Sequence record: OR896832.1
Strand: one strand, 5' to 3'
Length of the DNA: 64,000 nucleotides
DNA from: Escherichia phage GoldenSnicker
How positions within the stretch are numbered: the stretch's first letter is position 1; each line of letters starts with the position of its first letter. This document shows, piece after piece, positions 24,023 to 26,296 of this stretch. Below the pieces are notes generated by a model. It was not told the DNA's origin and made no database searches. It saw only the letters and a program-made list of their open reading frames with translations. Position numbers and translations under genes: made by a program.

Positions 24023-24292
24023 TTAAATATCGAGAGTGTTGGTCGGTTCGTCGATCACTCCCTTCCTGAGCGTTCTATTTACTATACATTCTTGTGTGAT
24101 CTTGTCAATAATGGACACCGGAATATACTTCTGATAGTGACCATATTCGATAGAGTTTTCCTCTACAAACTGCGTTGTCGCTTCAAGATAAGTCAATCCC
24201 TCTTCAACAACCAGTTTTTCGATTGCAAGACCGTTTGCTGTTTTATTCGCGGCTTTTACCGCATGTTCATTAAGCATTGAACACCCGATCAT
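24023..24292 (-). CDS. 33: late transcription co-activator gp33-like
   Basis: 89-aa acidic protein in the T4 gene 33 position; assigned by synteny only. Confidence 0.45.
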   Translation of the reverse strand: MIGCSMLNEHAVKAANKTANGLAIEKLVVEEGLTYLEATTQFVEENSIEYGHYQKYIPVSIIDKITQECIVNRTLRKGVIDEPTNTLDI

Positions 24293-24545
24293 AGAGTTCT
24301 ACCGCTTCGTCGCGTTCTGCTTCGAAGGTTTCGCGCTGTTGCTGGTGATACAGTTTAAACAGAATGCCCCACATTTTACCATCTACGCCTAATTCTTCTT
24401 TAGCACGCTGTTTGATCTCTTTGATCTTATCGCCATATGCTTCTTGAATGGTTTTCTGATCGCTGGCTTCTTTAATCAGTTGTGCCAGGGTATTTCCGTG
24501 TACATTTTCATCGAATACTACTTTTTCTTTTTTCTGTTCAGTCAT
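24270..24545 (-). CDS. dsbA: dsDNA-binding protein DsbA-like
   Basis: 91-aa charged protein in the T4 dsbA position; synteny only. Confidence 0.45.
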   Translation of the reverse strand: MTEQKKEKVVFDENVHGNTLAQLIKEASDQKTIQEAYGDKIKEIKQRAKEELGVDGKMWGILFKLYHQQQRETFEAERDEAVELYDRVFNA

Positions 24546-24550
24546 AATAT

Positions 24551-25150
24551 TTAACCCTCTTTCGTCATTAATTGAAAACCACGTTCAGCTTTTGAAATTT
24601 CGCTAGGACTTAAATCGTCACCAACATATTCTAGCATCATTTCTCGGATAATGTCAAGTGCTTTTTCATCACCTGATTTTAACTCGAACTCAAGTTCATA
24701 ATGAGCAGTGTTTCCCAATCCTTCGCCTACTTTGCCATAATAGAAAGTGTCTTTGCACATTTCCACTATACCACAACCCATATCTAGAGTCAATGACTTG
24801 CGATATGTCATTACTTGCATTATTGCAGTGATATAGTCGGAGTTTACCCCTAGACTATCAATAAAATGGACGAACTCATCCCAATTTGAAAATGTCATTT
24901 CCTCGCGGTTGAATAGTCCAGATTCATTATCACCCATTTTGACCATGATCTCTGATTTTCTACAGTCAAGTCGTGCATAAATTCCTTTTTGACGTAGCGC
25001 ATGATCTTCGGTATCATAATAAAATTCGTGTTTTAATATGTTATCTCGGTCTAAGAGATTGTACCCGTCATACATTGCCACCCACAAATCACAGATGGTT
25101 TCGACGCCAATTTGTGAGTGTGCATAGTATTTTAATTCAAGTTCTTTCAT
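24551..25150 (-). CDS. CYTH-domain (triphosphate tunnel metalloenzyme / class IV adenylate cyclase-like) protein
   Basis: N-terminal ELELKYY (ExExK) and C-terminal YELEFELK acidic strands typical of the CYTH fold; 199 aa. Confidence 0.5.
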   Translation of the reverse strand: MKELELKYYAHSQIGVETICDLWVAMYDGYNLLDRDNILKHEFYYDTEDHALRQKGIYARLDCRKSEIMVKMGDNESGLFNREEMTFSNWDEFVHFIDSLGVNSDYITAIMQVMTYRKSLTLDMGCGIVEMCKDTFYYGKVGEGLGNTAHYELEFELKSGDEKALDIIREMMLEYVGDDLSPSEISKAERGFQLMTKEG

Positions 25151-25160
25151 GTGTCAACCC

Positions 25161-26108
25161 TTAGAACTCACCAATTTTCTGTAACATTTTAACTAACGCA
25201 TTTGTTACAAAATAGTTATAAATTTTACCGCGTGGTGCTGGTTTAGATTTTTCCCATGCTAACAAAATTTCATATTCGATGTTATCAGGAATAAATTCAA
25301 AATCAATAAGTTCGCGGTTTTCGTCAAAGCGTCGTGCTTCTTCCTCTGTCATCAAAGACTTTGGATCTTCGGCATCGAAAATTTGCTCTAACCATTTGGT
25401 TGCAATTGGTTTAGCTCGTTCTCCTTCCAGTCGTGAGATAATGAAATCACTACGGCACTTGATAGAAGCTACACCGTCTTTTGCGTCACCCTTAACACAT
25501 TTTACCATAAGGTCTTTGTAAGGGCTACCATATTTGCATTTCTTCCACGCTTTCTGTACTGGCGACCACTGTTTCACGTTTTTGTATTTGTGCAACTGTG
25601 TGTAGTCACCATCGCCTGAGTTGATCAGCACCTGGCGACCTTCGACAGAAAACTTTTTAGTTAACACAGCGATTATATCATCCGCTTCAACTTTGTCAAC
25701 CTTAATAACGTGATAAGGCATGTTCTCTTTAAACTCTTCGGTGATCTTATTGATCGCAGCAAAGATCATCTCCCAATCACGCGGATCTGCGTCTCGTTTT
25801 TCCTTACGGTTGCGTTTATAGTAAGGGGCGATATCACGTCGCCAGTAACCTTTACTTGAATCAAAGGCAAGTACCGTAATTGGGTATTGCTCTTTGAATT
25901 TTGTCATATTATAACGCATGGTGTCAAGAATAAGATGACGAATCATGCCTTCATTAATAGGATCTTCCGGTTTAAAGGTATGCGAGATAGTAGCAATCAT
26001 AAGCTGCGACATATCAATCAAATGCACACCTTCCGGCAGTTTATCTTCTGGATCATCGAAGAAATCATTAAGTGTAGCGGTAGTTTTTGTAAACGGGTTA
26101 TACGTCAT
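25161..26108 (-). CDS. rnh: RNase H / 5'-3' flap exonuclease
   Basis: close match to T4 RNase H (KGYWRRD, YYKRNR, DKVEADDIIAVL, NSGDGDYTQLHKY, NVKQWSP, PRGKIY). Confidence 0.9.
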   Translation of the reverse strand: MTYNPFTKTTATLNDFFDDPEDKLPEGVHLIDMSQLMIATISHTFKPEDPINEGMIRHLILDTMRYNMTKFKEQYPITVLAFDSSKGYWRRDIAPYYKRNRKEKRDADPRDWEMIFAAINKITEEFKENMPYHVIKVDKVEADDIIAVLTKKFSVEGRQVLINSGDGDYTQLHKYKNVKQWSPVQKAWKKCKYGSPYKDLMVKCVKGDAKDGVASIKCRSDFIISRLEGERAKPIATKWLEQIFDAEDPKSLMTEEEARRFDENRELIDFEFIPDNIEYEILLAWEKSKPAPRGKIYNYFVTNALVKMLQKIGEF

Positions 26109-26110
26109 AA

Positions 26111-26296
26111 TTAAGTTCTCTCCACTCTCACAACAACATATTCGCCAAACGAGTTAGATACTTCACGATCATACCCGTATTTCTCCATAACTCGCAGAAT
26201 TGCATTGTTTAATTCGGCACGGAAATAATTGTAATCCTTATCAGGGATTCTGTCAACTACCCATTTTGCACCTTCTGACAAATCAACTTTAACCAT
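26111..26296 (-). CDS. hypothetical small protein
   Basis: 61-aa ORF abutting the rnh start. Confidence 0.35.
   Translation of the reverse strand: MVKVDLSEGAKWVVDRIPDKDYNYFRAELNNAILRVMEKYGYDREVSNSFGEYVVVRVERT

Follow-up and report, generated by a model that had tools for sequence, protein, structure and literature searches.

What is a CYTH-type gene doing between rnh and dsbA, two core genes of T4-like phages, and on which triphosphate might its product act? The locus in question lies in the window analysed here, by which we mean the whole stretch of 64,000 nucleotides from Escherichia phage GoldenSnicker (OR896832.1), where the ORF listing contains a minus-strand reading frame with an ATG start and 199 codons. 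A preliminary description of the sequence had placed such an ORF between dsbA and rnh and had pointed to an N-terminal ELELKYY and an acidic strand near the C-terminus. The ORF is there, its product begins MKELELKYYA and the YELEFE of the acidic strand occupies residues 151–156. Only 10 nt separate the gene from rnh on its upstream side and 5 nt from dsbA on its downstream side (Table 1); genes 33, 59 and 32 follow dsbA in that order on the minus strand, with gene 34 divergent on the plus strand.

Table 1. The CYTH gene, its immediate neighbours and its principal features (positions are those of the window)
Feature	Position	Strand	Remarks
CYTH / triphosphate tunnel metalloenzyme gene	24551..25150	-	199 aa plus stop; orthologue of RB49p245; PHROG 14893
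rnh (RNase H / 5'-3' exonuclease)	25161..26108	-	Upstream neighbour, same direction; Pfam RNaseH_C 2.6e-37, 5_3_exonuc_N 4.8e-18
dsbA (late-transcription dsDNA-binding protein)	24270..24545	-	Downstream neighbour; Pfam Phage_DsbA 5.4e-22
Codons 1-10, MKELELKYYA, strand beta-1 with ExExK	25121..25150	-	Conserved 5' anchor; E3 and E5 (predicted metal site 2) and K7, aligned to YgiF E4/E6/K8
Codons 11-150, hypervariable cassette (helix alpha-1, strands beta-2 to beta-7)	24701..25120	-	Basic tunnel residues K40, R60, K71, R82, R117
Codons 58-62, YARLD on beta-3	24965..24979	-	Clade-specific YxRxD version of (small)xRxR / WxRxR
Codons 151-156, YELEFE, strand beta-8	24683..24700	-	E152; E154 (predicted metal site 1); E156 (predicted metal site 2); aligned to YgiF E158/E160/E162
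C-terminal plug-helix segment	24563..24595	-	Helix 187-196 in the model; S186, K187, R190 and G191 invariant, aligned to YgiF SKAARG
Candidate sigma-70-like site TTGACA-17-TAAAAT, straddling the CYTH start codon	25129..25157	-	11/12 matches; -35 in the rnh-CYTH spacer, -10 in the ELKYY codons
Candidate sigma-70-like site TTGACA-18-TAGAAT, with TG, in the conserved CYTH 3' end	24628..24657	-	About 80 nt upstream of dsbA; placed to drive dsbA-33-59

Over the 2.4 kb surrounding the CYTH gene, Escherichia phages Delraymugoa and Aragogtheria share 100% identity with the window and RB49 about 96%, which identifies the window as part of a Krischvirus (RB49-like, Straboviridae) genome. Gene 34 and rnh are separated here by a 61-aa ORF (26111–26296, minus strand) belonging to PHROG 3594, a family with no function assigned in that resource. 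Since rnh adjoins gene 34 directly in seven of eight other Straboviridae genera (the exception being Slopekvirus KP27, with gene 55 instead), this ORF appears to be a second lineage-specific small insertion beside the operon. At the other end, gene 33 read from its first ATG (MIGCSMLN...) overlaps dsbA by 23 nt (24270–24292, minus strand); it is annotated from a later MLNE start in phage Skers and in the related locus L004, so gene 33 may in fact begin at the downstream ATG.

Every one of the 58 Krischvirus records in the phage collection has the CYTH gene in this position, and in 57 it is full-length. In the remaining phage, vB_EcoM_G2494 (L023, MK327935), the copy at 401–996 is frameshifted after approximately residue 58 and has been annotated as two ORFs of 66 and 130 aa; unless this is a sequencing error, the gene is dispensable, at least in culture. 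Outside Krischvirus, rnh is followed directly by dsbA in eight other genera: Tequatrovirus (CM8), Dhakavirus, Bragavirus, Karamvirus, Biquartavirus, Lasallevirus, Slopekvirus and Gelderlandvirus. The preliminary description had stated that T4 has no gene between dsbA and rnh, had taken the ORF for an accessory insertion in a conserved junction and had proposed that the junction be compared across related phages. The comparison bears out the first two points, CM8 standing for the T4 arrangement, and with the insertion missing from all eight genera we regard the CYTH gene as having entered, long ago and in this lineage only, a junction that is otherwise fixed.

Metagenomic homologues tell the same story. 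On every readable contig the homologue comes just before dsbA, and after rnh wherever the upstream gene is visible; the dsbA-adjacent homologues include members that are 47%, 40% and 30% identical to the phage protein. A search of IMG/VR for distant phage relatives returned only three Krischvirus contigs, JGI metagenome contigs yielded neither distant relatives nor other contexts, and tblastn with the two most distant clade members recovered only the same 58 Krischvirus records. The picture that suggests itself is of an early-operon accessory gene that would be fixed at the rnh–dsbA junction of Krischvirus and of related uncultured T4-like phages.

The ORF product belongs to the CYTH/triphosphate tunnel metalloenzyme (TTM) superfamily, as had been proposed from the sequence motifs. 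The Pfam CYTH model (PF01928) matches residues 27–191 (29.5 bits, E 8e-7; gathering score 23.2), and a profile built from 18 homologues aligns end to end with the tunnel domain of Escherichia coli YgiF (5a60, E 3.7e-13); searched against PDB sequences on its own, the protein had no significant match. The ExExK signature on strand beta-1 (E3-L-E5-L-K7) is kept in all homologues. Structure prediction, also suggested beforehand, was performed using AlphaFold2 with the homologue alignment and gave a confident model (pLDDT 92.9, pTM 0.86) with eight long strands and a C-terminal helix: the phage protein is predicted to fold as an eight-stranded antiparallel beta-barrel tunnel with a C-terminal plug helix. 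Searching 1.84 billion representatives exhaustively with the profile identified 3301 relatives at E<=1e-3, mainly 200-aa stand-alone and 500-aa CYTH–CHAD proteins, but only three at E<=1e-30, making the phage clade a small isolated branch of the YgiF-like group.

The known protein most like it is YgiF, an inorganic triphosphatase whose TTM domain comprises residues 1–200 (PDB 5a60/5a61), although identity is only 22%. YgiF is encoded on the host chromosome and has a linker and CHAD domain, whereas the phage-encoded protein has neither, ending at residue 199 just past the plug helix; stand-alone forms are common among its relatives. Recent capture of the host ygiF gene was considered and rejected, given the low identity and absent CHAD domain. 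Bacterial stand-alone YgiF-like CYTH proteins of about 200 aa (such as P0044 and P0046) have the same length and single domain, about 30% identity and all the catalytic residues, but differ in keeping the xRxR motif with its preceding small residue and in their chromosomal phosphate-metabolism context, with PhoU and PHO4 as neighbours.

The structures of YgiF and AtTTM3, together with mutants, have assigned roles to the residues lining the tunnel (PMC4641920). In YgiF numbering, the metal that activates the attacking water (metal 2) is coordinated by E4, E6 and E162, and the one that holds the triphosphate (metal 1) by E160. Activation of the beta–gamma bridge falls to R56, while K69 binds substrate and positions E4 for metal 2. 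The phage counterparts of E4, E6, E162, E160, R56 and K69 are E3, E5, E156, E154, R60 and K71. All are invariant in the 12 phage-clade sequences, as are K7, Y44, D46, R82, E84, R117, S186 and K187, and among the 147 nearest bacterial representatives each residue of the set recurs in no fewer than 134, for most residues in 143 or more. E152 on beta-8 is invariant alongside E154 and E156, whilst E130 and D134 each differ in one distant clade member. The catalytic set is likewise invariant in the 18-sequence phage alignment, and catalytic and metal-binding residues are kept down to 30% identity.

This conservation leads us to predict that the phage protein is most likely an active two-metal triphosphate hydrolase. 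By analogy, the tunnel would bind a Mg- or Mn-triphosphate and hydrolyse off the terminal phosphate, without cyclisation of ATP: metal 2, bound at E3, E5 and E156, would activate the water nucleophile, E154 with metal 1 would hold the triphosphate and R60 would activate the beta–gamma bridge. It had been suggested earlier that a phage CYTH enzyme could either make or hydrolyse a nucleotide or polyphosphate signal; residue conservation favours hydrolysis of a triphosphate, and the adenylate cyclase signatures considered below are absent.

Which triphosphate might be hydrolysed is a question for the lining of the tunnel. The beta-3 motif reads small-x-R-x-R in TTM phosphatases and W/Y-x-R-x-R in thiamine triphosphatases (PMC8233210). 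The phage sequence here is Y58-A-R60-L-D62, against G54-L-R56-I-R58 in YgiF. It has neither the small residue nor the RxR that characterise TTM tripolyphosphatases, but both glutamates of the beta-8 ExE, also typical of that group, are present (E154-F-E156, after E152); of the thiamine triphosphatase motif it has Y58 and R60, with the second arginine replaced by aspartate. The second arginine is found in 145 of 147 bacterial relatives, compared with aspartate in 11 and asparagine in one of the 12 phage-clade sequences. Position 58, which is Ala, Gly or Ser in bacteria, is Tyr in ten of the 12 and Val or Ile in the two most distant members.

Further differences surround this motif. At predicted tunnel-facing positions the clade has Y9, K40 and Y138 without exception, and C132 and H150 almost without exception. 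K40 is clade-specific, the bacterial residue being Leu in 106 of 147 relatives, and aliphatic residues occupy the positions of Y9, Y138 (Ile or Val), C132 and H150 in bacteria; the YgiF equivalents of K40, Y9, Y138, C132 and H150 are L36, I10, V147, A141 and I156. K40 and D62 are on neighbouring antiparallel strands of the model and may pair, this pairing and the tunnel-facing assignments being derived from strand parity and register in the DSSP string of the predicted model. The tunnel lining would thus appear to have been rebuilt, with a thiamine triphosphatase-like Y58 for the small residue, D62 for the second arginine and K40 for leucine. Taken with the clade-specific Y9, Y138, C132 and H150, the YxRxD motif and K40 hint that the phage enzyme is not a textbook YgiF-type triphosphatase and that its substrate is other than the usual one.

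In thiamine triphosphatases, the substrate lies with its organic part towards the plug helix, and the aromatic residue at this position of the motif stacks on that part. Because Y58 occupies that position, we favour an organic triphosphate as substrate; one with its organic part directed towards the plug helix, in the manner of thiamine triphosphatase, would fit best, and the substrate is probably something other than plain tripolyphosphate. The resemblance goes no further than this, the mammalian enzyme (PDB 3bhd/5a64) having W/YxRxR where the phage has YxRxD and sharing about 15% identity with it, and nothing ties the phage protein to thiamine. On balance, we think it likely that the gene encodes a stand-alone, CHAD-less YgiF-like TTM that hydrolyses a triphosphate, probably not PPPi, and that it is an early accessory gene fixed between rnh and dsbA whose product has a cassette-swapped surface.

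A plainer interpretation is that the protein is a YgiF-type inorganic tripolyphosphatase or short-chain polyphosphatase of bacterial origin, converting PPPi to PPi and Pi and so freeing phosphate or removing PPPi during infection. The best match in both sequence and fold is YgiF, itself a specific PPPase (PMC3440374); the gene for the nearest stand-alone relative in bacteria adjoins PhoU and a PHO4 phosphate transporter; and three GenBank records and a JGI/IMG entry name the phage protein an inorganic triphosphatase. Moreover, changing the second arginine of AtTTM3 to alanine had little effect on its PPPase activity (PMC4641920), so the R-to-D change need not alter specificity and plain PPPi hydrolysis becomes a serious rival. 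It is difficult, however, to reconcile with the near-complete split between bacteria and phage at that arginine, with six further tunnel positions that differ clade-specifically, and with the oddity of an acidic residue replacing a cationic phosphate ligand in an enzyme that binds a penta-anion. Nor is the benefit to the phage obvious, given that E. coli pyrophosphatase already hydrolyses most cellular PPPi (PMC3440374). We consider this interpretation possible but distinctly less probable than hydrolysis of a different triphosphate.

A second peculiarity of the gene, and one that the preliminary description did not include, is the mosaic structure of its centre. We compared the window with L001, L002 (Skers), L004, L006 and L022. 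Between the window and the Skers, L004 and L006 alleles, pS across codons 11–150 is 0.75–0.78, that is, synonymous sites are saturated, whereas codons 1–10, codons 151–199 and the flanking rnh, dsbA, 33 and 59 genes have pS values of 0–0.18 in the same comparisons; for codons 1–10, pS is 0 against all Krischvirus alleles. Clustering resolves at least four classes of central cassette, with 39–57% amino acid identity, inside gene ends that are 88–100% identical. That such diverged cassettes sit between near-identical ends and flanks indicates that recombination through the conserved ends has swapped the middle of the gene. Homing endonuclease genes occur nearby in some relatives, an HNH enzyme being encoded between genes 59 and 32 in Skers (L002, 5802–6398) and another homing endonuclease within the rnh-to-33 stretch of PTE-Eco09; such genes could promote local recombination.

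The variation is not spread evenly over the protein. Within the variable part, predicted tunnel-facing residues are 65% identical across alleles, compared with 26% for outward-facing strand residues and 25% for loops and helices (Mann–Whitney p = 8e-7). This pattern says that the tunnel matters and that the surface is either unimportant or pressed to change; the outer surface would be free to diverge, with cassettes swapped through the conserved gene ends, whilst the tunnel is kept. Pairwise dN/dS values of 0.2–0.34 give no sign of pseudogenisation.

A changeable surface around a rebuilt tunnel also invites a more adventurous interpretation, namely an enzyme of counter-defence or host takeover that would act on an alarm or immune signal derived from a nucleotide, or on 5'-triphosphate RNA, by removing its triphosphate, with surface hypervariability reflecting an arms race with a host sensor or inhibitor. 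An RNA variant of this idea would have a Cet1-like RNA triphosphatase activity feeding RNA decay. There is little in the surroundings to encourage it: PADLOC gave no match at E up to 1, no defence or anti-defence gene is linked, the neighbours being the core replication and late-transcription genes rnh, dsbA, 33, 59 and 32, and the literature offers nothing in its favour. The dN/dS of the cassette, well below 1, means that neutral import from diverged relatives explains the divergence equally well, and the plug helix closes one end of the tunnel, which is unfavourable for threading a polymer. We judge the counter-defence role unlikely, and give equally little credence to the stronger proposition that YxRxD plus K40 defines a new specificity class of tunnel enzyme which destroys a triphosphate-bearing signal or alarm, or the 5'-triphosphate of RNA, in the infected cell; cassette-like hypervariability confined to the surface would then record an arms race with a host factor that senses or inhibits the enzyme. 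RB49-type phages are not known to carry modified cytosine. A further role considered was a dUTPase-like one, excluding an unmodified nucleotide from modified DNA, as has been suggested in jumbo phages (PMC7824862).

The preliminary description had also raised the possibility of a class IV adenylate cyclase, and four GenBank records of the phage protein carry the label 'adenylate cyclase'. The class IV cyclases, such as CyaB of Aeromonas and YpAC-IV (PDB 2fjt/3n0y), do share superfamily, fold and a similar size with the phage protein, but are defined by three features (Vogt et al. 2021, PMC8233210), none of which it has. The HFxxxxExExK sequence is absent, there being only M1-K2 before E3 and no space for HFxxxx; the first arginine of xRxR, which becomes a small residue (V/C/L) in the cyclases, is kept as the invariant R60, for which a clash with the ribose in the cyclase orientation has been proposed; and the second glutamate of the beta-8 ExE, alanine in all class IV cyclases, is kept as the invariant E156. 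NCBIfam returned no family-model match other than a spurious HAD hit (E 0.14). In YgiF itself, the closest relative, cyclase activity was undetectable, and ATP, GTP and ITP are not hydrolysed by it (PMC3440374). Production of cAMP or of some other cyclic nucleotide by the phage protein during infection is very improbable, and as all three signatures fail and YgiF is no cyclase, the GenBank label is probably wrong. A catalytically dead CYTH fold, serving as a binding protein or sponge or having no function, might be read into the one frameshifted isolate and the highly variable surface, but is just as implausible for a gene that is intact in 57 of 58 sequenced Krischviruses and in which no catalytic or metal-binding residue varies down to 30% identity.

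Tunnel enzymes recur in viruses. Aeromonas phage 65.2, Aeh1 (ORF004c), uncultured Caudovirales and the Mimiviridae and Pithoviridae (mRNA 5'-triphosphatases) encode CYTH proteins that share the fold (Foldseek probability 1.0), but at 9–16% identity and TM-scores of 0.3–0.6 these are unrelated lineages at different loci, and the giant-virus enzymes are domains of capping enzymes. The similarity of the Krischvirus protein to CYTH and ygiF is already on record, with annotation going back to 2003: the RB49 GenBank record describes RB49p245 as 'similar to ... HI1598, ygiF', Nolan et al. (2006) list RB49ORF244c with a CYTH domain (E 0.0026), the kvi and Sf20 proteins appear in UniProt as 'CYTH domain-containing protein', and PHROG 14893, which holds the phage family, is listed as unknown function. 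A literature search found no functional study of a phage CYTH/TTM protein and no paper on a Krischvirus adenylate cyclase. What is distinctive is the YxRxD plus K40 variant of the tunnel and the cassette polymorphism.

For annotation, the consequence is that 'adenylate cyclase' should probably give way to YgiF-like triphosphate tunnel hydrolase. More broadly, we know of no physiological role for the bacterial CYTH proteins, YgiF included. Long retention at one locus of a gene with an intact catalytic site and a rebuilt tunnel offers a tractable handle on what CYTH proteins do, and the substrate of the phage enzyme might show which triphosphate compound matters during infection. The conserved ends and swapped middle also illustrate, cleanly and on a small scale, how T4-like phages can exchange modules within a gene. 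The significance is modest unless the substrate turns out to be defence-related or RNA-related.

Clues to the timing of expression come from promoter-like sequences. No late promoter (TATAAATA) was found near the CYTH gene, the sole one in the area facing gene 34, whilst sigma-70-like sites are enriched on the minus strand, with 21 found against 8.4 +/- 3.3 expected, including sites upstream of the 61-aa ORF. The CYTH gene is likely to be co-transcribed early with rnh. The candidate site straddling the CYTH start codon has counterparts elsewhere: TTGACA is found 3–4 nt before the CYTH ATG in two distant relatives, L003, where rnh is saturated at synonymous sites, and L018, where the CYTH protein is 40% identical, and in L019 a full TTGACA-17-TATAAT ends at the ATG. 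A transcript from the straddling site would begin inside the CYTH ORF. The candidate site in the 3' end recurs in this position in every Krischvirus allele examined (RB49, L004, L006 and L022; Skers has 10/12 matches), and L018 and L019 have similar sites ahead of dsbA; it may serve dsbA-33-59 and add to the conservation of the 3' end of the CYTH gene. Finally, a perfect sigma-70 consensus with an upstream TG (TTGACA-16-TATAAT; 25672–25699, minus strand) lies inside rnh, some 520 nt upstream of the CYTH start, and is possibly an internal early promoter.
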